A stretch of DNA of 64,000 nucleotides, from contig JAUWSQ010000001.1 in the NCBI GenBank assembly GCA_030609965.1, forward strand, positions 105,787-169,786, written 5' to 3'. The stretch comes from Candidatus Fermentibacterota bacterium (GTDB lineage Bacteria > Fermentibacterota > Fermentibacteria > Fermentibacterales > JCC-6). Position 1 is the first letter of the stretch, and each line of letters starts with the position of its first letter. The position numbers were made by a program, and so were the translations under genes. Of the stretch, positions 8,867 through 62,261 are shown piece after piece. Under the pieces are notes generated by a model. That model was not told where the DNA came from. It did no database searches and worked only from the letters and a program-made list of their open reading frames with translations.

Positions 8867-9220
8867 ATGGGTAAAGTAGCTTTAATCTGCAACGGTTCTG
8901 AAAAATCAAATATCTATCCTGCATTCGTTCTTGCTTCCTCGGCCGTTGCATCAGGTGACGATGTATTAATTTTCTTCACACCTGAAGCGGTTCCAGCCCT
9001 GAAACCAGGTATTCTGGAGGGCATGACAGGAAAAGGTATGCCTGATATGAAGGATCTTCTTGAGGGGTTTATGGCTCTCGGCGGACGCATGATGCTGTGC
9101 GAACTGGGGCTGGAAGCACATGATGTTACAGCTGAAGGCCTGAGGGACGATATCAATATAGGTGGAGCAACCACCTTCATGGCTGAAATTCAGGACGCGA
9201 AAACAACATTCTCATTCTAA
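8867..9220 (+). CDS. DsrE/DsrF-like sulfur carrier
   Basis: FVLASSAVASGDDVLIFFT...MMLCELGLE; DsrE fold with one Cys. Confidence 0.8.
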   Translation: MGKVALICNGSEKSNIYPAFVLASSAVASGDDVLIFFTPEAVPALKPGILEGMTGKGMPDMKDLLEGFMALGGRMMLCELGLEAHDVTAEGLRDDINIGGATTFMAEIQDAKTTFSF

Positions 9221-9238
9221 TACGGAAGGAACAATAAA

Positions 9239-9463
9239 ATGGCTTCAATAGTACTCGACGCACTAGGAATGAAATGCCCCCAGCCGATACTGAAAATAGC
9301 TATAAAGGCCAAAGAACTGCAGCCTGGCGACATGCTGGAGGTTCTCGCGGACTGCCCCTCTTTCCCGGTTGACATAAAAGCCTGGTGCGAGCGAACAGGG
9401 AAGACCCTTCTGTTCTGCGCCACTGAAGGAGACGGCAAGCACAAAGCACAAGTTCAGTTCTAA
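9239..9463 (+). CDS. tusA: TusA/SirA family sulfurtransferase
   Basis: LDALGMKCPQP signature; 74 aa. Confidence 0.85.
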   Translation: MASIVLDALGMKCPQPILKIAIKAKELQPGDMLEVLADCPSFPVDIKAWCERTGKTLLFCATEGDGKHKAQVQF

Positions 9464-49476: not shown

Positions 49477-51042
49477 CTACCTTGATGATTCTTCAAGCAA
49501 AATGGAAAAGGTTCCTTCTCCCGAGGAATACTTCCCGACGATAAGGAAACTGTCTCCGGCCTGGTTTTCATTTACGGTGAAATTCAGAAGGGAGTTGGTA
49601 TCATCCCCGCCGTCATCGTCGTAAAGGTTCGCTCCGTCGGGCAGAATCAATGTCACTACAGTATCCAGTTCATCACTTCCAACGGATATGGAGTAGCTTG
49701 TACCTGCCTGAAGATTGAGTCTGTAAATAATGCTCTCGGTTTCATAGGACGCGTAAGCTTCCGTTGACCTGCCGACTCTGAGGGTGTTTATGCCCTCTTC
49801 ATCTTCGGACCATGAGAATATCACTTCGTCTTCACTCGAACCGCTGTAGGGTGATACAAGGGCAATGTAATCACCCGGAAGGAGGGGATTGATAATCCTT
49901 GAGTCAGAGCCGAGATCCGGGTAATCATCGTTTGAGGCGATGTACTGTATATTGCCTTCAGCATCTCTCTTGAGGAGAGTAAGGCATACATCTAAATAAC
50001 CGGAAGCGGTCAATTCGTAAACTGAAGTAGTTTCTACAGTAAATGTAAAAGCCGCCACAGGAGTGAAGGGAGTGAGAAACCCGGGCACTTCCCAATTGTC
50101 TGCCATACCGGACCACCAGGCAATAGCGAAATTTCTGTCAGGAATTATTTCAGTTCTGTACTCCACATCCATCAATGGTGCGGTGATTTCTACTTTTTCC
50201 AGTGCTTCCTCATCGATGACTTCCATCGAGAGAGTAAATCTACCCTGACTGCCGGCTCCGTAGGGCATGACAAGTGCTATGTAATCTCCGCAATCCAGTT
50301 CTCTTACTATTCTGGAGTAGGAACCGCTGTAATCATCGTTGGATTCAACGAATGTATAAGTTCCATCCTCAACTGCCAGTAGAACCAGATAGGGATCAAA
50401 TTCATCGGATTCAAGTGATATTGAAACCAGTTCTTCGTTCTCTACTGTGAAAGGAAAGAGTTCCGCCTGGGAGTAGTTGTAAATGTAGACATCGTTTTCA
50501 AGAGCTTCTCTCAGTATGGTGCTAAGGTAAGCATTGTAGCTGTCCGCTTCGATCCACCCCGTTATCGTTCCACTGGAGAAATCGGTGACATCGATGAAAG
50601 CTTCGAGATCCTCTGGAGTTCCTTCTTCAATAATAACGTCGTAAAGACCCCTGGTATCATCAGGTGAGAAGATCAGGAGTTTTCCCCCTGTTGGAGCGCC
50701 ATCAAGTACGATCCTGACGCTGGTTCCTTTCCAGCTGATGCTGAAGGCAACAGGATTTCCCTCTCCGTCGATTACCACGGCTATGGGGTCAAAATCGTGG
50801 CTTCTTACATCAATAACAATTATCCCGCTTCCGGATATATCATGCACAGCGGTATAGGTATCCGGTTGTACAGGGCAACCCTGGGCAAAAAGAGCAGTGC
50901 TGGCCATCGGCCAGGCGTCGGTGAGCGTATGTGTTTTCTCCGGCAGTGCACTTCTTATTACGTTGCCTGGGGTCGCGACTCCGTTTCCGCAGGCTGCTGT
51001 CATCATAGACAGCACTATTAAAAAGGTCAGCAGTGTTTTCAT
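49477..51042 (-). CDS. Lipoprotein with repeated PPC-like (pre-peptidase C-terminal) domains
   Basis: MKTLLTFLIVLSMMTAAC lipobox; repeated FDPYLVL...NDD....SRI units. Confidence 0.8.
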   Translation of the reverse strand: MKTLLTFLIVLSMMTAACGNGVATPGNVIRSALPEKTHTLTDAWPMASTALFAQGCPVQPDTYTAVHDISGSGIIVIDVRSHDFDPIAVVIDGEGNPVAFSISWKGTSVRIVLDGAPTGGKLLIFSPDDTRGLYDVIIEEGTPEDLEAFIDVTDFSSGTITGWIEADSYNAYLSTILREALENDVYIYNYSQAELFPFTVENEELVSISLESDEFDPYLVLLAVEDGTYTFVESNDDYSGSYSRIVRELDCGDYIALVMPYGAGSQGRFTLSMEVIDEEALEKVEITAPLMDVEYRTEIIPDRNFAIAWWSGMADNWEVPGFLTPFTPVAAFTFTVETTSVYELTASGYLDVCLTLLKRDAEGNIQYIASNDDYPDLGSDSRIINPLLPGDYIALVSPYSGSSEDEVIFSWSEDEEGINTLRVGRSTEAYASYETESIIYRLNLQAGTSYSISVGSDELDTVVTLILPDGANLYDDDGGDDTNSLLNFTVNENQAGDSFLIVGKYSSGEGTFSILLEESSR

Positions 51043-51365
51043 GTCATCTCCCGATTCTGTGAAAGTCATTCATATGTTAAGATAATACCAAACAGGCACA
51101 GATACTATTCCATCAGAGGTGCCACCGGTTTCGTCAGTCTGTCAGAAGATGCATTTACCGCAACGTTGTAGTTCTGGTAGCAGTTTCGGGACCAAGGAAT
51201 TATTTTCAAGCTGCTGCGTATAAATGTATTTATATGTTTAAGCTATTGTGTATTTCATATAAAAGCGACTTAACTCTTTGTCAGTACTCGAATTACTTTA
51301 CTTATTGACAATGCCGGAGTATAATCATTTGAATGATATCACTCACTAGAAAGAAGAGGTGTATT

Positions 51366-53774
51366 GTGAGAATAATCACTGTTTTGCTTGTGCTGTTCAG
51401 TATGGCCATGGCGGAATGGGTCGACTTCGGCACTTCCGACCTGGATCATGCCAGCCTGGAAGTGGTGGAGTGTACCGCCTCCGGTTTTGTAGTGGATATC
51501 ATCCTTCCAGGATTCGGGAACAATTCCTTTTCCGAGGATGGATTGATATTCAACGCCATCAGTGTAGCCTCCCTTACACCGTACGCTGAAGCGGAGGGAG
51601 CTCCAATGCTTCCAAAGGCATCCTTCATGGCTGCAATTCCGAATAATCCCAATGTCTCCATAAGCGTGGAGGCACTTGAAACACCCATCGTTATAAGGAA
51701 CATCACTCCTTCACCCATGCAGCCGATCCCGATTGAAAGCTCATACGATCCGGTCCCCTTCACTTACCTGCCGGAAGCCTACAGTCATGGATCGTATCCT
51801 GCTTCGGAAGCTGTATTCGAGAATTCAGGAACCATTCGCGGAGTGAATATCGGCAGGTTCACAGTGATTCCTTTCCATTGGGATGCACAAACAGGTGATC
51901 TTACCGTCACCCCCAAGCTACGTGTAACTGTGGATCTGGGCGGAAGTGTAAGTATCGATCCAAGGCTTCGGAGCAGGTTCTTCACGAACACTTACAGAAC
52001 CCTTATCAATGCAGAAATACTCGGTGAACCCGAAAGAACAATAAGCTCAGAAACCAGTGAGCCAATAAGGGCCACCAATATCAGACAGGCAAGGGAAATC
52101 ACCGAGGCAGATCTGCTGATAATTGCCGGTGATGACTTTGTCGATACCATGATGGATGCTTTCATTGATGCGAAAATGGATCAGGGTTACCTCACTGCGA
52201 TAGTTGCCGCTGGCAGCTGGACCCAGACGGAGATCAAGGACTACATACAGAATGCCTACGATAACTGGGTTATACCTCCAAGTTTCATTCTTTTCGTTGG
52301 AGATCAGGAGGATCTTACCAGTTTCAGCGCCCCGGGCATGTACAGCGACAATCGCTACGTCTGCATGGATGGGCCCAGTGATTATCAGGCCGACATCTTC
52401 AACGCTAGATTCGTAACTCCCACAAGCCACTACCCCATTGTGGAGGAGAAAATTCTCAAATGGGAATACGACCCTCTGATGGACACGGATTTCTGGGGAA
52501 ACGTTCTCTGTGCAGGAATGCTCCAGGCACTTGGTGGTACAGTTGCAGACCGCTGGTTCTGCTTCACCTGTGAAACGGTCCGCGACACTTACATGAACAT
52601 CTACGGAAAGACCGTTCAGAGGGAATACACCAAGGACACTTCGGCTCCACCTCCTTATTACTACAGAAACGACCTTCCCAGCGCAGGGCAGGAGATTCCC
52701 AGTGATATTGTCTGGGACGGTAATGCTGCAGGTATTCTTGAAAGTGTGAATGATGGAGTTTTCCTGGTTCAGCACCGAGACCATGGCGGCGTTTCAGGCT
52801 GGGGAGACCCTGCTTTCTATATATCGGACCTCGCAGGCTTAACGAACGGTGAGAAAACTCCAATGGTGATGAGCGTCAACTGCCTTACAGGAAAATTCAG
52901 CCTTGACTGTTTTGCTGAAAACCTGTTCAGAATGGAGGGCGGGGCGGTCGGTGTCCTTGCAGCAACTGAAGTCAGCTACAGCTATTGGAATGATTACGTC
53001 TGTTACGGTCTTTACAAATCCTTCAACGATGAGTACACGAGCCCCCCTGCGCTGTACACTGATCCCACTGGTAATTACCTTACCGGCCAGGCTCTTATGT
53101 GCGCTAAAATTGAAATGGAAACATCCGCACCATTTTGCCCGTATCCAACTAACAGGGCAGAAACCGAGTGGGATCTTTTCCACTGGTTCGGCGACCCGAC
53201 AATGGATATGAGAACCGATGTTCCTCACAGTATAAATGTAACAGCTCCTGTAAATCTGCCTGTCGGTTCCACCCAGGCTATTTTCTCTGTGAGCGATCCC
53301 GAGGGTGTTGTAGATAACGCTCTTGTATGCATTACGCATGACAGTCTCTGGGCAAGCGGTGTCACCGACACAACAGGCAGCGTTACGCTTACTTTCGATC
53401 CCATCGGAGGCCTGACCGACATATGCTGGATGGTGACCGCTCATAATGCACTTCCAGAAGAGGGCGTTATTAACGGAATGGGAATCGAGGGTGATCCAGA
53501 GGGAACTTTAACATCCATTGTAGGATTACCTCATCCAAACCCGGCAAGCGGCAATGTTATCTTCCCGGTCACGCTCTCAACCGGAGGTCAGTTCGAGATG
53601 ACTATCTACGATACCGCCGGAAGAGCTGTTGAAATGATACATTCAGGGGAACTTGAAGCCGGCTCTCATTTCCTTATCTGGAATACGCAGGAAATGCCTC
53701 AGGGCATCTATATGATTCGATCCATCGACCCGACAGGCTCGATTACAACAAACAGACTTGTTGTGTGCAGATAA
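51366..53774 (+). CDS. Gingipain-like C25 cysteine peptidase with propeptide and T9SS-like C-terminal domain
   Basis: GTG 51366; LLIIAGD, RDHG (His), SVNCLTG (Cys), FHWFGDP, PHPNP..IYDTAGRAV..GIYMIR. Confidence 0.9.
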   Translation: MRIITVLLVLFSMAMAEWVDFGTSDLDHASLEVVECTASGFVVDIILPGFGNNSFSEDGLIFNAISVASLTPYAEAEGAPMLPKASFMAAIPNNPNVSISVEALETPIVIRNITPSPMQPIPIESSYDPVPFTYLPEAYSHGSYPASEAVFENSGTIRGVNIGRFTVIPFHWDAQTGDLTVTPKLRVTVDLGGSVSIDPRLRSRFFTNTYRTLINAEILGEPERTISSETSEPIRATNIRQAREITEADLLIIAGDDFVDTMMDAFIDAKMDQGYLTAIVAAGSWTQTEIKDYIQNAYDNWVIPPSFILFVGDQEDLTSFSAPGMYSDNRYVCMDGPSDYQADIFNARFVTPTSHYPIVEEKILKWEYDPLMDTDFWGNVLCAGMLQALGGTVADRWFCFTCETVRDTYMNIYGKTVQREYTKDTSAPPPYYYRNDLPSAGQEIPSDIVWDGNAAGILESVNDGVFLVQHRDHGGVSGWGDPAFYISDLAGLTNGEKTPMVMSVNCLTGKFSLDCFAENLFRMEGGAVGVLAATEVSYSYWNDYVCYGLYKSFNDEYTSPPALYTDPTGNYLTGQALMCAKIEMETSAPFCPYPTNRAETEWDLFHWFGDPTMDMRTDVPHSINVTAPVNLPVGSTQAIFSVSDPEGVVDNALVCITHDSLWASGVTDTTGSVTLTFDPIGGLTDICWMVTAHNALPEEGVINGMGIEGDPEGTLTSIVGLPHPNPASGNVIFPVTLSTGGQFEMTIYDTAGRAVEMIHSGELEAGSHFLIWNTQEMPQGIYMIRSIDPTGSITTNRLVVCR

Positions 53775-53836: not shown

Positions 53837-54271
53837 TTACTGCTTTGTTAACACGAACGGGTTAGTTCCGAAACCAGAAGGCCCGACTGTGTCACCAAAA
53901 TCACTGAGAGCCAGAGTACAGGCAGTGGCTGTGGAGTTCAGCGCGTATATTCCAAGGGCTGTCAGTCCATTGTAGCTGCTGTCTGGGCTGGTGGCGCATA
54001 AAAGATCAATGTTTTTCGGAGTAGTTGTTGTATTCAATACGAAAGTACCTGTATAAGTACATGTTGTGTCCTGGTCAGACCAGTACTCCTCAAGAACTGT
54101 CCAGTTTGAACCTGAAAAGGTGAAGGATATTTGGAAAAGAGAATCGGAGTCGGACCAAGTACCTTCCAATTCAGTTCCCACTTGCCCAGGGCCTGTTGAA
54201 CTAGAACCGCAGCCCCAGAATGCGACTATTCCTGTAAGAACAGCCAGCATAATCAGCCATCTAAGTTTCAT
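53837..54271 (-). CDS. Small lipoprotein, TIGR03067-like
   Basis: RBS GGAGG, ATG 54271; AFWGC lipobox; LEGTW..TPKNIDL..LGIYAL. Confidence 0.7.
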   Translation of the reverse strand: MKLRWLIMLAVLTGIVAFWGCGSSSTGPGQVGTELEGTWSDSDSLFQISFTFSGSNWTVLEEYWSDQDTTCTYTGTFVLNTTTTPKNIDLLCATSPDSSYNGLTALGIYALNSTATACTLALSDFGDTVGPSGFGTNPFVLTKQ

Positions 54272-54454
54272 AGCAACCTCCTGTTCTGTTAATATTCTTC
54301 TCCGATTTCTGCCTGAAGTTGAGCATACTGCCCGAAACCCCCCCATGTCAACAAAACCAGCAGGGAATAAGCTCGGTCTGGTAAGATTAATATTGAGACT
54401 CAGCCTGGCTAGAAGAAAACAGTTGTACCCTCGCGCTACTCGTGCTTCCAGAAG

Positions 54455-55477: not shown

Positions 55478-56030
55478 CTCGTCAACGCAGCGAGCAAGCC
55501 GCCGACATTACCTCTGATTGAAACTGGATCGCTCTGGCCACGATCCTGATTACGGGGATTGGAATCATAGAGTAGTTTTCAAGGTCAAAGCGACCTGGAG
55601 CAAACTGAATCTTCATTATAAACCATTCAGCAAATCCCCCAAAACAACGTGTTCTTTCAAACAACCTCCGATTCCTACCTGAAACTCACAATACAACCTG
55701 ATAAAGCTGTAGTCAACCAATGTTGCCATCAATTGCGTCGGGATGTCATCCTGTCAGGATGTGTAATCCGCTCAGGATTCACACACCAGTTCCATAGGTT
55801 CAGGAGGTGACCTGGGATCTTCCCAGAGATCAAGGTGTTTTTGACTTAGTCAAGCTCCCCATGCAACCGGCAATGCTGGTGTCAGGATACACCTGATGGT
55901 TGAAGGCTGCTCTATGAAAGAGATGCCTTTGCAAGCGGGGCGGCATCATTTTCTCACCGCACTTCGGGTACTTCAGGGCATGGTTGTCGAATGCAACATA
56001 GAAGGTTATCTTGACAAAAATAATCAACTA

Positions 56031-56059
56031 TTGACCAATTTTGCTAATGTGTGTAAAAT
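56031..56059 (+). promoter_or_regulatory. Sigma70 promoter of the rSAM-peptide operon
   Basis: TTGACC-N17-TAAAAT, 59 nt upstream of ATG 56118. Confidence 0.65.
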
Positions 56060-56117
56060 ACGGTATAGGATTAGTGTGGTTTCTGATGATATCAAGACTA
56101 AAACCAGGAATAGGAAA

Positions 56118-57329
56118 ATGAGCAAAACGCGCTCAGAACCAAAACTTGAGTCTGTATCCACGATTGAAAAAACTCCTCGTAAGCGTAAAAAGATATTCTC
56201 AGTAGTTTTTATGCCTACATTGGCTTGTAATTGCAGATGCTCCCATTGTTTTGAGGAATTAGCCGAGGGGAATGCGGAAGATCACAACTGGGAACTTCAC
56301 TTCACTGAGATGCGCAGGCTGGCTGAGACGCTTAAATGCAATACGCTGAAAGTGTACTGGCAAGGCGGCGAGGTCCTTTGCTTGCATCCGGATACCGTCC
56401 AGTGCGCACTTGATATTGGGGCTGCAGTTTTTAAAGATAGTGATATTACTCTTGAACATCATCTACAAACGAACTTGCTCCTCTATGAAACGTCCAGATG
56501 GAAGGAAGTAATCTCCAATTTTTTCCTCGGCAGTATAAGCTCCTCTATTGATCTGCCGAATCTCTTCCGCCTCACGCCAACCCTGGGTGTGGATGAATAC
56601 AACCGGGCGTGGCTCAAGAAAAAAGATATGGCTGAAAGAGACGGGTTCACCGTCAGTGTAGTCAGCTTACCGAACCATAAAACCCTGGAACTTGGCGCCG
56701 AGCGCTTCTACCGATTCTTCCGGGATGAAGCACTGTTGAAAAACGTGCAGGTCAACTTCCCATTCCCTGGAAATAGCGGTTTGGAACCGCTGGATCTCAA
56801 AAAGCTGGCCGGATTTATGACCGATTTGTACAAGATATGGGTCGCATCAGGCAGAGACCTTAATCTGAGCCCGTTTAGGGCAATGGAAGACAGGCTGTTA
56901 CGAGGTAGAGGCGCGCTTCCCTGCTGCTGGACGTACAGCTGCGCTTCCATCCTTCTGTCGATCGGCCCGAACGGTGGTGTAGGCCAGTGTGATTGCTGGG
57001 TAGCCACTTATAGTGATCATAACTTCGGAACGACCGATCAGCCCGTTGAGCAGCTCTTGGATTCGGATCAGCGGCAGCCGTTTTTGAACAGACCCCTCAA
57101 ACTGATGCGGGATACCAAGTGTGGTGAGTGCAAGTTCTGGGGAATTTGTTTTGGTGGTTGTCCGATTCGCGCGTTTGCATTCACAGGCAACCTGATGGAT
57201 GTCGATCACTATTGCCCAGTTTATTATGAAATGTTCTCAATCATTCTGGATCAAGCAGAGCATGAAAGCCAGTTAGAGTATGAATTCAGTGAGGAGGTAG
57301 AATTCAGTTCGTCGGAGAAAGGTGGGTAG
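56118..57329 (+). CDS. Radical SAM/SPASM peptide maturase (anSME-like)
   Basis: PTLACNCRCSHC, WQGGEV, LQTNLL; SPASM CCWTYSC..GQC..CGECKFWGICFGGCP..YC. ATG 56118 preferred over 55896. Confidence 0.9.
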   Translation: MSKTRSEPKLESVSTIEKTPRKRKKIFSVVFMPTLACNCRCSHCFEELAEGNAEDHNWELHFTEMRRLAETLKCNTLKVYWQGGEVLCLHPDTVQCALDIGAAVFKDSDITLEHHLQTNLLLYETSRWKEVISNFFLGSISSSIDLPNLFRLTPTLGVDEYNRAWLKKKDMAERDGFTVSVVSLPNHKTLELGAERFYRFFRDEALLKNVQVNFPFPGNSGLEPLDLKKLAGFMTDLYKIWVASGRDLNLSPFRAMEDRLLRGRGALPCCWTYSCASILLSIGPNGGVGQCDCWVATYSDHNFGTTDQPVEQLLDSDQRQPFLNRPLKLMRDTKCGECKFWGICFGGCPIRAFAFTGNLMDVDHYCPVYYEMFSIILDQAEHESQLEYEFSEEVEFSSSEKGG

Positions 57330-57361
57330 TTTCTCATCAAGTATGAAGGGAGGAGAATGGT

Positions 57362-57802
57362 ATGACTCTGGAAAAGCAACCAGATGGAAGAAAAGAGAAG
57401 AAGAAAACAAAGAAAGAAGACGACAGCATTGACAGACGCGAAGCGCTGAAGAGAATTGGCCGGTACTCGGCCATCGTGGCCGCCGCGCTTACAACCGGCA
57501 TTCTCAAGACAGGCTGCGGGAGCAATCCTACCGCCCCATGGTCGGATGCGTACAGCGACTGGAACAACACCTACAGCGACTGGAATGACGGTTACAGCGA
57601 CTGGAATGACGGTTATAGCGACTGGAATGACGGTTATAGCGACTGGAGCAACGCCTGGTCCGACTATAGCGACTGGAGCAACACCTGGTCCGACTATAGC
57701 GACTGGAGCAACACCTGGTCCGACTATAGCGACTGGAGCAACTGGTCTGACTCTTATAGTGATTGGAATAATTTCTGGGGAAATTGGATGCAGTCGTGGT
57801 AG
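57362..57802 (+). CDS. Putative precursor peptide/lipoprotein with Trp/Tyr-Ser-Asp repeat core
   Basis: RBS GGAGG; DRREALK + hydrophobic stretch + KTGC; residues 60-146 contain 17 W, 9 Y, 1 F. Confidence 0.85.
   Translation: MTLEKQPDGRKEKKKTKKEDDSIDRREALKRIGRYSAIVAAALTTGILKTGCGSNPTAPWSDAYSDWNNTYSDWNDGYSDWNDGYSDWNDGYSDWSNAWSDYSDWSNTWSDYSDWSNTWSDYSDWSNWSDSYSDWNNFWGNWMQSW
57551..57772 (+). repeat. Coding tandem repeats: 4 x 21 nt, then 3 x 30 nt plus shortened copies
   Basis: TAYAGCGACTGGAA(TGACGGT/CAACACC) x4 (57551-634); TATAGCGACTGGAGCAAC(G/A)CCTGGTCCGAC x3 (57635-724); a 27-nt copy and a diverged copy follow. Confidence 0.95.
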
Positions 57803-60182: not shown

Positions 60183-62261
60183 ATGAAAGTAAACAGTGTA
60201 CATGTATTAATCTCTAAATCCTGCCCAAACAACTGTATATTCTGTACTGTTGCTGGCCGGAGGAGAAGACAGATTTTCCCGGAAAAGAAAGAGATCATCC
60301 GCTTCATGAGGGATTCTGCGGCGGCGGGGACCCGGAGTCTGGTTTTCTCCGGCATGGGGGAGCCCACTCTAGATCCTGATTTCGAAGAATACCTTGCATT
60401 AGCAGAGGAATTGGGATTTGACAGCATCAGCCTTTTTACGAATGGTTATGGCCTTAAGGCAGAAGACGTCCGCCGCTGGAAAGATTATGGCCTTTCATCA
60501 GTCTTAATTTCCATGCATGGAATGGAAGACGGCCACGATCGCAATGTTCAGCGAAAGGGGTCTTTCAGGGAGGCTGTTTCCGCTATACGGCTATATTCAG
60601 AGTATGATATCTTGGTTACCGTCAACACATGCCTGACCCGGCTTAACCTTCCCGAGATACCGAGGCTGTGCGAATTCCTTGCTGGCTTTCGGGTGATAAC
60701 ACACACGCTCACATTCCCTGAGTGGTCAGGTAACGTGCCACTCTACGAAGAAAATATTCTCGATTACCACGAAGTCAGTGAAGTAGCGGGTGATCTGATC
60801 CCTGAAGGGAATATGATAGCAATGTTCGAGGATATGCCATATTGCCTGGTTCGTAATAAAACTCGCGAGATGCAGAATCGGGGAATTGTCGGGCTGCTCG
60901 ATGGTACCGGAGAGCATGAATTTGACGGGAACGCAAGGAAGATCTTTCCGGAATCGTGTTCGGGTCGCGGGTGCGTATTCCAAACCGTTTGTTCAGGTTT
61001 TGAGAGGAACTACATCAAAGCCCGGGGTTGGCAGGATCTCAAGGAAAGGGTTGGTCGGTTTCTTGATCTTCTCAATGATCCTGAGCACGGGGATACAATA
61101 TTAGCAGAATTACCCGATCACCCTCGTACGCGCAGATCCCCGAAAGGAAGCCGACGCAGGTCCGACCGTGGACCTCATAACAGCCAGGTCGTGATCGTTA
61201 AACCAACCAGCCGGTGTAACGCAGGTTGCCGATATTGCTCAAGCTATAAAGAATCGCAACCACCCGATATGTCGCCTGACTTCCTCGACAAGATGTATGC
61301 GGAGCTGTTCGAATATGCAGCGCTCCAGGGCAAAAAATACATTACATTCTTGTGGCATGGGGGAGAACCATTACTCATGGGCAAATCCTTCTATGACCGC
61401 GCATGGGGTCTGACAACCACCGTTAAAGATCTGAGAATCACACATATCCTCCAGAGCAACATGCTGCTTCTGGATAATGATTGGGTGGAGCTGCTCAGCC
61501 GGTACAATGTACACATCAGCAGTTCTGTTGACCCGATTGGTCAAGACCGTATTCTCAAGGATGGTCGTCAGCAATATCCCGACTGGCTTGACAAGTTCAT
61601 CCTGGCTGCTTCCGGCGGCCTGCACTTAGGATTAGTGTTTACGGTCACCCCGAGCCATATTGATAGGTATGCTGACGTTTATCATTTCTTTAAGAACCTG
61701 CAAACCCTGTCAGCAAGACCCCTGGGCGTTCGCTTGAATCCGGTCTACCCGGCCGGGGCCGCTAAAGGGCTGGACCCTGGGGAGTTGATCGACCCAGCCG
61801 ATTACGGTGAATTTCTTTGCCGGCTATGGGATCTCTGGTGTAATGATGGGAAATCTTTCCCGCTCTCACCGTTTACAGATTGGAGTGAGGGGAAAGGAAC
61901 AACATGTGAATTCTCCGGACGATGCCAGGATAATTTCATAGAGGTTAGCGGCAATGGTGATATTCACCACTGCGGAAGGTTTACAGACGCAGGTTTGGTG
62001 CTGGGGAACATTACTAACGCCAAGCTTGTGGATATACTGAAACACCCTCAGATGAAAGAAATTCGTCGGCGTTCAGAGCTGCTGAAAGATGGATCGTGTA
62101 AAGGATGCCCTTTCTGGGAACTTTGCATGGGTGGCTGCCCTTGTCACGCTTATACTACATTCGGAGAAATAACGCGCGAAACCCCCTACTGCCCCGCCTA
62201 CAAAATGTTCTTTGCTTCGAGCGGCCTGGGCAGTGTTGAAGATAAGCTGGAGGTTAATTGA
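60183..62261 (+). CDS. Tandem radical SAM fusion: rSAM (HxsC-like) + rSAM/SPASM
   Basis: CPNNCIFC..SGMGEPT..CSGRGCVFQTVC; linker; KPTSRCNAGCRYC..WHGGEP..LQSN..CEFSGRC..HHC..CKGCPFWELCMGGCP..YC. Confidence 0.88.
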   Translation: MKVNSVHVLISKSCPNNCIFCTVAGRRRRQIFPEKKEIIRFMRDSAAAGTRSLVFSGMGEPTLDPDFEEYLALAEELGFDSISLFTNGYGLKAEDVRRWKDYGLSSVLISMHGMEDGHDRNVQRKGSFREAVSAIRLYSEYDILVTVNTCLTRLNLPEIPRLCEFLAGFRVITHTLTFPEWSGNVPLYEENILDYHEVSEVAGDLIPEGNMIAMFEDMPYCLVRNKTREMQNRGIVGLLDGTGEHEFDGNARKIFPESCSGRGCVFQTVCSGFERNYIKARGWQDLKERVGRFLDLLNDPEHGDTILAELPDHPRTRRSPKGSRRRSDRGPHNSQVVIVKPTSRCNAGCRYCSSYKESQPPDMSPDFLDKMYAELFEYAALQGKKYITFLWHGGEPLLMGKSFYDRAWGLTTTVKDLRITHILQSNMLLLDNDWVELLSRYNVHISSSVDPIGQDRILKDGRQQYPDWLDKFILAASGGLHLGLVFTVTPSHIDRYADVYHFFKNLQTLSARPLGVRLNPVYPAGAAKGLDPGELIDPADYGEFLCRLWDLWCNDGKSFPLSPFTDWSEGKGTTCEFSGRCQDNFIEVSGNGDIHHCGRFTDAGLVLGNITNAKLVDILKHPQMKEIRRRSELLKDGSCKGCPFWELCMGGCPCHAYTTFGEITRETPYCPAYKMFFASSGLGSVEDKLEVN

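Follow-up and report, generated by a model that had tools for sequence, protein, structure and literature searches.

How does a modified peptide leave the cytoplasm when its gene cluster holds neither a leader protease nor an exporter? This question is raised by a precursor gene in a 64,000-nucleotide stretch of a Candidatus Fermentibacterota genome (contig JAUWSQ010000001.1; hereafter the window), where an open reading frame (ORF) of 146 amino acids sits in a co-directional block of signal-less enzymes, most of them radical S-adenosylmethionine (rSAM) proteins. An earlier note on this DNA had read the first 59 residues of the precursor as a leader resembling the signal of a lipoprotein exported by the twin-arginine translocation (Tat) pathway. 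Our analyses support this reading: the twin arginine (RR) and a downstream Cys are conserved among homologs, length and hydrophobicity of the segment are Tat-like, and the genes of the required machinery are present in the genome. The precursor gene and its elements are as follows.

57347..57355, forward strand: Shine-Dalgarno sequence AGGGAGGAG, strong, 6 nt upstream of the ATG, read from the DNA
57362..57802, forward strand: precursor gene with a putative Tat/lipoprotein-type signal, a core of aromatic-x-Asp/Asn repeats and the tail WGNWMQSW
57362..57433, forward strand: long, charged, Lys-rich n-region, residues 1-24 (8 K/R and 7 D/E)
57431..57451, forward strand: twin-arginine motif D-R25-R26-E-A-L-K, residues 24-30
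57464..57505, forward strand: h-region YSAIVAAALTTGIL, residues 35-48, 14 uncharged residues, weakly hydrophobic
57503..57517, forward strand: lipobox-like L48-K-T-G-C52, non-canonical with Lys at -3; Cys52 is the proposed lipidation and cleavage site
57518..57538, forward strand: short linker GSNPTAP, residues 53-59
57539..57799, forward strand: core, residues 60-146, 87 residues of YSDWN-type repeats

The interval 57362-57538 corresponds to precursor residues 1-59. The translation starts with MTLEKQPDGRKEKKKTKKEDDSIDRREALKRIGRYSAIVAAALTTGILKTGCGSNPTAP and then runs into the repeats; written element by element, the N-terminus reads MTLEKQPDGRKEKKKTKKEDDSID-RR-EALKRIGR-YSAIVAAALTTGIL-KTG-C52-GSNPTAP, with C52 as the sole Cys of the precursor. 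The Lys-rich n-region, DRREALK, the uncharged stretch, KTG-C52 and the GSNPTAP linker, all listed earlier, were each found in place. Between residues 53 and 146, Asp or Asn occupies the +2 position of 24 of the 27 aromatic residues (9 YSD, 5 WSD, 4 WSN, 3 WND, 2 WNN and 1 WGN). Compared with Pfam and NCBIfam, the precursor had no family match at E <= 0.01, and at E <= 1 the matches were weak, Tat- or lipoprotein-like, confined to the N-terminus and all sub-threshold. In the surrounding 22 kb, which also include the second tat pair described below, RR together with a hydrophobic stretch occurs in no other ORF except a Sec-type lipoprotein and, as an internal segment, TatC.

We collected a family of 20 proteins, made up of the window copy and 19 relatives from metagenomes and metagenome-assembled genomes (MAGs). 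Eighteen relatives of 103-352 amino acids came from a sequence search followed by a profile search. A further profile, blind to the N-terminus and built from the last 60 residues only, was run against 1.84 billion representative proteins and recovered ten true representatives, among them the new 94-amino-acid protein P0037, plus two low-complexity false positives. As a search of this size gave ten true members, the family must be small. Conservation of RR and Cys in homologs had been fixed beforehand as the test of the Tat-lipoprotein reading. With the window copy included, 19 of the 20 proteins have RR and likewise 19 have the Cys behind the h-region, at a spacing from RR that is constantly 25-29 residues. 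In the set picked by its C-terminal core, each of the two features is found in nine of ten members.

Tat signals carry the motif S/T-R-R-x-F-L-K at the boundary of n- and h-region. The twin-arginine consensus of the family, [STDNE]-R-R-x-[FMLVA]-L-[KRQ], is by its sequence close to this extended motif, and the layout of RR, h-region and Cys is, judged from the recurrence of each feature in 19 of 20 proteins, beyond what chance would give. The two exceptions are instructive. P0007, whose source is named Candidatus Poribacteria, has NK for RR together with a canonical S-L-G-C and the most hydrophobic h-region in the family (2.52), by a margin over the other members that is small. In P0017, a protein with three Big_2 domains, RR is kept and the signal ends without Cys in A-F-A followed by S, a signal-peptidase-I-type site. 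From sequence, the combination of NK and higher hydrophobicity in P0007 is what a switch to Sec would require, and the changes in both proteins make sense for an export signal and not for a segment that merely docks an enzyme.

A long n-region, a weakly hydrophobic h-region and a basic residue near the cleavage site are established Tat traits. For comparison, we used 89 Sec-type lipoprotein candidates found by a simple pattern in the same genome. The Cys lies at median residue 46 in the family (range 36-57; 52 in the window copy) versus a median of 21 in the Sec-type candidates, and the best 10-residue Kyte-Doolittle mean is 2.07 +/- 0.33 (window copy 2.06) versus 2.87 +/- 0.59. Basic residues stand by the cleavage site as Lys49 in the c-region of the window copy and as Lys at -2 in P0005 and P0006. 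Furthermore, P0020, a protein of the Tat-lipoprotein type for which a PF10518 domain is precomputed, gave a profile match to the family through its N-terminus alone; the front end of the family hence resembles accepted Tat signals. Taken from these sequences, residues 1-52 of the precursor very probably are an export signal, and export would probably proceed via Tat rather than Sec.

A classical lipobox closes the h-region with [LVI]-[ASTVI]-[GAS]-C and has no charged residue immediately ahead of it. Canonical versions are found in family members other than the window copy (e.g., LVAC, ILGC, SLGC, LSGC and FSAC), and all Cys-bearing members have G, A or S at -1. We lean toward lipidation of the window copy at Cys52, with less assurance than for the choice of Tat. 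By the E. coli rule, Gly at +2 is not a retention signal of the Asp type. Several relatives carry an Asp/Glu-rich stretch right after the Cys, which the window copy does not have; such stretches recall the surface-export signals of Bacteroidota (PMC13056109). For the mature precursor we infer anchoring to a membrane, not surface display specifically.

The genome, a 2.62-Mb MAG (80.7% complete, 0.57% contamination) from the uncultured lineage Candidatus Aegiribacteria within the Fermentibacterota, encodes the machinery that such a signal needs. The check for tatAC, lgt and lspA proposed with the earlier reading found all of them: tatC and tatA, each twice and each time above the Pfam cut-off, as well as lgt (188.8 bits) and lspA (132.7 bits), which with LolA (34.5 bits) likewise score above theirs; an Lnt-like gene stays under its cut-off. 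Other candidate Tat substrates in the genome are few, namely a type I phosphodiesterase, a metallophosphoesterase and one protein of unknown function. The phosphodiesterase carries MKRRDFLK...NAGC and is thus itself of the Tat-plus-lipobox type.

The second tatC/tatA pair lies just outside the window, at a position equivalent to ~66.3-67.5 kb of its numbering and 3.2 kb beyond the last cluster gene. Its tatC and tatA are adjacent and divergent. The tatC stop overlaps the start of a 90-amino-acid ORF (orf90) by 4 nt, and a gene for a 704-amino-acid B12-binding rSAM protein follows on the same strand; this protein has two matches only in the genome collection, both confined to the rSAM motif. 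Past tatA lie genes for a B12-rSAM protein of 559 amino acids and an rSAM/SPASM-like protein of 350 amino acids. Island and housekeeping TatC are 75.5% identical, and the two TatA proteins, of 68 amino acids each, are closely similar side by side. The housekeeping tatC (C28:1731-2456) and tatA (C80:~9130-9340) are unlinked, in this organism as in the genus. TatC was found in 56 of 60 genomes from the taxonomic family, with a single match in 49 of the 56. All 11 tatC loci of relatives that we inspected, the best-scoring ones and all from the same genus, lie in the housekeeping context seen on contig C28. The 559-amino-acid rSAM gene beside the island tatA and the precursor cluster both occur in this genome alone (1 of 70 genomes from the phylum and 1 of 26 from the genus), and the extra tat pair therefore sits within one strain-specific island. 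By maximum likelihood, the island TatC falls with a different species clade of the genus at 99/99 support, and the housekeeping copy into the sister clade; from this placement, the island TatC is an old paralog or a within-genus xenolog, and the sequences suggest that the island moved between Aegiribacteria species.

Contamination of the bin was considered as a source of the second tatC and rejected: among 57 ORFs of at least 200 amino acids on the two housekeeping contigs, only TatC has a close paralog. The position of the island tatC outside the conserved housekeeping context further disfavors contamination.

The extra tat pair is surrounded by a second rSAM block (locus L003, 2639-9563; C51:169638-176562; ~63.9-70.8 kb in window numbering), which ends with a 205-amino-acid zinc-ribbon-like protein, followed by a major facilitator superfamily transporter. 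No second precursor-like ORF was seen in this block.

The enzymes that accompany the precursor in the window are encoded by four genes.

56118..57329, forward strand: radical SAM/SPASM enzyme, likely start 56118, 403 amino acids
57845..59818, forward strand: B12-binding radical SAM enzyme, 657 amino acids (PF04055, 53 bits)
60183..62261, forward strand: fusion of two radical SAM domains, the second SPASM-type, 692 amino acids
62258..63151, forward strand: accessory protein, 297 amino acids, with a C-terminal Cys cluster (SPASM E = 0.0045, sub-cut-off)

Together they amount to four radical-SAM-type domains and an rSAM-like accessory; no MNIO enzyme is found in the cluster. The first frame is open from 55896 (477 amino acids), and as its relatives have 362-396 amino acids, the real start probably is 56118 or later. 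This rSAM/SPASM enzyme has no signal peptide and no room before CxxxCxxC for an N-terminal recognition element (RRE) of the kind known in RiPPs (peptides synthesized ribosomally and modified post-translationally). It exceeds the cut-off of the SPASM model TIGR04085 (42.8 bits over 27) and scores 89 bits against DynA (cut-off 450). For the B12 enzyme, families resembling RiPP C-methyltransferases match, all sub-cut-off, and so do DynA (181 bits), YhhB (116), FxsB (93) and GrrM/OscB (88) for the double rSAM protein. The best NCBIfam matches of the SPASM enzymes are DynA, DarE, DarW, anaerobic sulfatase maturase and the cyclophane synthases YhhB, FxsB, GrrM/OscB and AmcB. As all matches are far under the cut-offs (116 versus 445 for YhhB, 93 versus 370 for FxsB, 88 versus 310 for GrrM and 97 versus 425 for AmcB), the enzymes belong to the broad superfamily and to no curated family. 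An RRE domain was not detected in the cluster enzymes, whose rSAM motif begins within ~40 residues of the N-terminus.

In the 297-amino-acid accessory protein, a CxxxCxxC motif was not detected. Its AlphaFold2 (AF2) model, of moderate confidence (pLDDT 68), has SuiB as best fold match (E = 4.5e-4, TM 0.42-0.44), with generic TIM barrels next, and resembles neither an RRE nor a TorD-like fold, for which it was searched. The rSAM-like half-barrel of the model points to a degenerate partner of the rSAM type, and away from an RRE or a chaperone; the protein may serve to hold the substrate without being catalytic itself.

Eight other loci (L004, L008, L022, L024, L026, L030 and L031, partly also L005) keep two to four enzyme genes beside a precursor. 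The rSAM/SPASM gene adjoins the precursor in the first seven of these as well. Directly downstream of the precursor, L022, L024 and L031 have a B12-binding rSAM gene, the domain being on record in these three only; L004 has an rSAM-only gene and L026 a partial gene that had no domain search. As L030 is without the B12-rSAM, this enzyme is not essential to the system. The double rSAM gene is kept in L004, L022, L026, L030 and L031, and L024 has a 677-amino-acid gene with no domain record there; an accessory of ~280 amino acids is present in L004, L008, L022, L026, L030 and L031. Gene order is permuted, with double rSAM and accessory before the precursor in most loci and after it in the window and in L030. 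None of the eight loci holds a protease, an ABC exporter or tat genes, in contigs that mostly end at the cluster. L030 and L031 show both cluster borders, with pyrimidine-biosynthesis genes on one and a HicB/PIN pair on the other, and within these borders there is no peptidase, no ABC or PCAT exporter and no tat gene. The missing protease and exporter, remarked on from the window alone, are hence a property of the conserved clusters. In the phylum, the cluster including its accessory is found in one of 70 genomes and absent from the other 69; the rSAM/SPASM enzyme has no relative in the genome-contig collection, and base composition does not set the island apart. A terminator scan around the cluster gave scores no better than shuffled sequence.

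Upstream of the cluster, the reverse strand encodes a 530-amino-acid Sec-type lipoprotein with repeated PPC-like modules (GDYIALV...; 49477-51069), a domain that is also the passenger of most precursor relatives. On the forward strand, 51333-53774 encodes an 813-amino-acid protein that by eye resembles a C25/gingipain-type peptidase with a C-terminal sorting domain of the type IX secretion system (T9SS) kind. A second Sec-type lipoprotein of 169 amino acids (53837-54346, reverse strand; …LTGIVAFWGC…), with a weak, sub-cut-off match to TIGR03067, a Planctomycete-type domain, appears unrelated to the cluster.

The family members differ most in what lies between the Cys and the core. This segment has 7 residues in the window copy and is about as short in P0002 and P0037. 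The Cys of most relatives is followed by a linker rich in Gly or Asp, which leads into a folded domain of ~120 residues; across the relatives, folded domains of 0 to about 250 residues separate Cys and core. The passenger resembles PPC in one member (PF04151, E = 1.8e-4), is a CarboxypepD_reg domain in P0016 (PF13620, E = 8.8e-11) and consists of three Big_2 domains in P0017. Conservation in the family peaks in the C-terminal tail W-G-N-W-x-x-S-W, which reads WGNWMQSW in the window copy and by its conservation would be a better candidate for enzyme recognition than the N-terminal segment. This agrees with a remark in the paper on DAG-RiPPs, which are RiPP-lipoprotein hybrids, that lipoprotein-type RiPPs are expected to be leader-independent or to use a follower (PMC13056109). 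The h-region, G-[KR]-[YF]-S-A-I-A-A, is also conserved beyond the usual level of signal peptides, which leaves room for a second role of this segment in enzyme recognition.

Outside the family, P0018 (208 amino acids) combines repeats of the WSDYSDW type with a C-terminus rich in Cys, lacks a signal peptide and begins with an unrelated domain. A different system of similar chemistry, one without export, may have this protein as its substrate.

These observations are consistent with the following route. The full-length precursor would be made first, and its C-terminal aromatic-x-Asp/Asn repeats would be modified in the cytoplasm by the rSAM enzymes, which have no signal peptides and need SAM and reductant. 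The repeats would probably gain small cross-links of the cyclophane type, and the B12 enzyme may add methyl groups. Once finished, the partly rigid product would then cross the inner membrane post-translationally through a Tat translocase that recognizes R25-R26, possibly the island TatA/TatC pair. At Cys52, Lgt would attach diacylglycerol and LspA would cleave ahead of the residue, leaving a mature product of ~94 residues tethered to a membrane by its N-terminal lipid, be it at the inner membrane, at the outer membrane on its periplasmic face or at the cell surface. Such use of general machinery would explain a cluster without leader protease and dedicated exporter. For the whole chain of Tat export and lipidation, we put the chances slightly above even. 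A further elaboration is that the h-region is first held by the rSAM maturase complex, e.g., by the 297-amino-acid partner, and that only the fully cross-linked product is released to a private island TatA/TatC, lipidated and displayed. Such holding would resemble the action of Tat proofreading chaperones on the signals of cofactor enzymes; on this analogy, we regard it as a speculative possibility, and a rather improbable one.

Several findings speak against a Tat-exported lipoprotein. P0007 is a family member without RR, so the family can dispense with it. Among the curated Tat models, PF10518 had no match to the family at E <= 1, TIGR01409 matched one member (E = 0.17; 12.3 bits versus a cut-off of 16.7) and TIGR02811 matched 8 of 19 members, at best with E = 0.0066 and far under its cut-off. 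The L-K-T-G-C of the window copy, with Lys at -3, is non-canonical under the PROSITE rule PS51257, and six relatives with Glu or Lys at -2 (four with LLEGC, two with LLKGC) break the classical lipobox rule. The extra tatAC pair is linked to the cluster in this genome only; tat genes are absent from the other precursor loci, whose contigs mostly break off at the cluster. With <=25% identity to the cluster enzymes, the rSAM genes that surround the pair are only distant relatives, and the pair may serve something else.

Among the alternatives, a Sec-dependent lipoprotein survives best. Here the precursor would carry an ordinary signal-peptidase-II (SPII) signal as DAG-RiPPs do, the RR would merely be part of a basic n-region, and export would run through SecYEG, following the modification or in spite of it. 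The sub-threshold Tat models and the NK of P0007, which otherwise keeps the signal and a canonical lipobox, fit this explanation, and all experimentally shown RiPP-lipoprotein hybrids use Sec/SPII, with Tat unmentioned (PMC13056109). Nevertheless, RR recurs in 19 of 20 proteins inside an extended Tat-like consensus, the signals have about twice the length of the genome's Sec lipoprotein signals and are clearly less hydrophobic, and several members have basic residues beside the cleavage site. Folded passengers and a cross-linked tail would moreover need finishing before export, and a second tatAC pair lies in the island. We thus consider Sec export unlikely.

The precursor could also be targeted to Tat and yet not be lipidated, either remaining as an uncleaved N-terminal anchor of the Rieske type or being cut by signal peptidase I to give a soluble periplasmic or secreted product. 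The irregular lipobox of the window copy, the non-lipoprotein version of the signal in P0017 and a weak match of one member to the Rieske Tat-anchor model PF10399 (E = 0.057) are in agreement with this. Against it stand a Cys at constant distance from RR in 19 of 20 proteins, which is the only one of the precursor, the universal small residue at -1, the lack of an AxA site in the window copy, and Gly- or Asp-rich linkers straight after the Cys as are typical of lipoprotein tethers. To us, loss of the lipid step appears somewhat less probable still than Sec export.

That residues 1-59 are only an enzyme-recognition leader was the earlier note's own alternative. Such a leader would be bound by the rSAM enzymes and later removed by an unlinked protease, without any role in export. 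This fits poorly: an h-region far more conserved than usual signals while passengers diverge does suggest recognition by a specific protein, but up to ~250 passenger residues separate segment and core in relatives, the enzymes have no detectable RRE and the accessory fold is rSAM-like, the tail is the better recognition candidate, the bounded clusters lack protease and exporter, and both exceptions vary as export signals do (NK with higher hydrophobicity; A-F-A before S), which makes this explanation very improbable.

If the precursor is indeed a Tat-exported lipoprotein, several consequences follow. The usual RiPP scheme comprises a leader, modification, and a dedicated protease and exporter, and hybrids with lipoproteins were shown in 2025-2026 for MNIO enzymes and Sec alone. 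The RiPP-lipoprotein idea would then extend to radical-SAM, cyclophane-type chemistry and to Tat, an exporter of finished folded or cross-linked cargo, and the absence of protease and exporter from such clusters would be explained. The predicted product is a membrane-tethered, acidic tail of ~90 residues, rich in Trp and Tyr and perhaps with up to 24 small rings. The island TatAC pair would be a rare case of a translocase possibly recruited to a biosynthetic cluster. If the more speculative proofreading step held as well, the locus would encode a self-contained route that modifies, proofreads, exports via Tat and anchors protein-sized poly-cyclophanes, and the first radical-SAM RiPP class to pass through Tat/SPII. 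Precursors of this kind may escape software designed around short peptides or classical leaders; a rule for genome mining would be RR plus lipobox on repeat-rich ORFs beside rSAM genes. A full-text literature search for Tat signals on RiPP or radical-SAM substrates gave nothing relevant, and the combination of a Tat/SPII signal with a radical-SAM-modified repeat core was not found in the papers searched.

Among known systems, a related database entry is the pair TIGR04133/TIGR04134, in which an rSAM/SPASM enzyme likewise stands beside a predicted lipoprotein that is its presumed substrate ("radical SAM-associated putative lipoprotein"). The scores are low: TIGR04133 matches the 55896-57329 enzyme with E = 6.5e-5 (22 versus a cut-off of 425) and TIGR04134 matches P0016 with E = 0.0068 (16 versus 39.8). 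The pair is database-defined; it is not known to have a published function, nor is a Tat motif known to be part of its definition.

For the extra translocase, Bacillus subtilis phoD-tatAd-tatCd offers a parallel, a second, substrate-linked TatAC translocase (reviewed in PMC3827258). There, too, a duplicate minimal TatA/TatC exists beside the housekeeping pair and near a gene with a twin-arginine signal. In contrast, the island pair is linked to the precursor by proximity only (3.2 kb, convergent), forms an operon with another rSAM gene and is found in a single genome.

Regarding the chemistry, triceptides are formed by three-residue cyclophane-forming rSAM/SPASM enzymes (3-CyFEs), namely XyeB, GrrM/OscB, FxsB, YhhB, HaaB and HtkB (PMC11499958). 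The precursor resembles their substrates in its core of repeated aromatic-X-X units, with D or N at +2 in 24 of 27, and the adjacent rSAM/SPASM enzymes have cyclophane synthases among their best matches, next to DynA/DarE/DarW and sulfatase maturase. By analogy, we infer cyclophane-type cross-linking of the repeats, although the maturases of the precursor cluster stay far under the curated cyclophane-synthase cut-offs. A Tat or lipoprotein signal on a triceptide precursor was not reported in the literature searched.

Bufferins and oxazolins, MNIO-modified RiPPs with Sec signal peptides, likewise replace the classical leader plus exporter by a signal peptide for general secretion (PMC11626156, PMC12452194). 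These differ from our system in using Sec, in MNIO chemistry on Cys and in a copper-binding function.

The nearest relatives in organization are the DAG-RiPPs, e.g., lipo-DybAH and lipo-NedABC (PMC13056109, PNAS 2026). Both systems have an N-terminal signal that ends in a conserved lipobox or lipobox-like Cys and a C-terminal motif modified in the cytoplasm by signal-less enzymes, which for our system is read from gene architecture alone. Both would rely on housekeeping maturation by Lgt and LspA, with Lnt where present, and have no dedicated protease or exporter in the cluster, and in both the members range from short peptides to large-passenger proteins with a modified C-terminus. In contrast, MNIO (DUF692) enzymes modify the published DAG-RiPPs, whose signals are of the Sec/SPII type, with neither Tat nor radical SAM mentioned (PMC13056109), whereas the precursor cluster has radical SAM/SPASM and B12-radical SAM enzymes, a conserved twin arginine and an extra tatAC in the island. 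As judged from its genes, the precursor system is thus one that works like a DAG-RiPP but stands outside the described families, as a Tat-type, radical-SAM counterpart with a possible private translocase.

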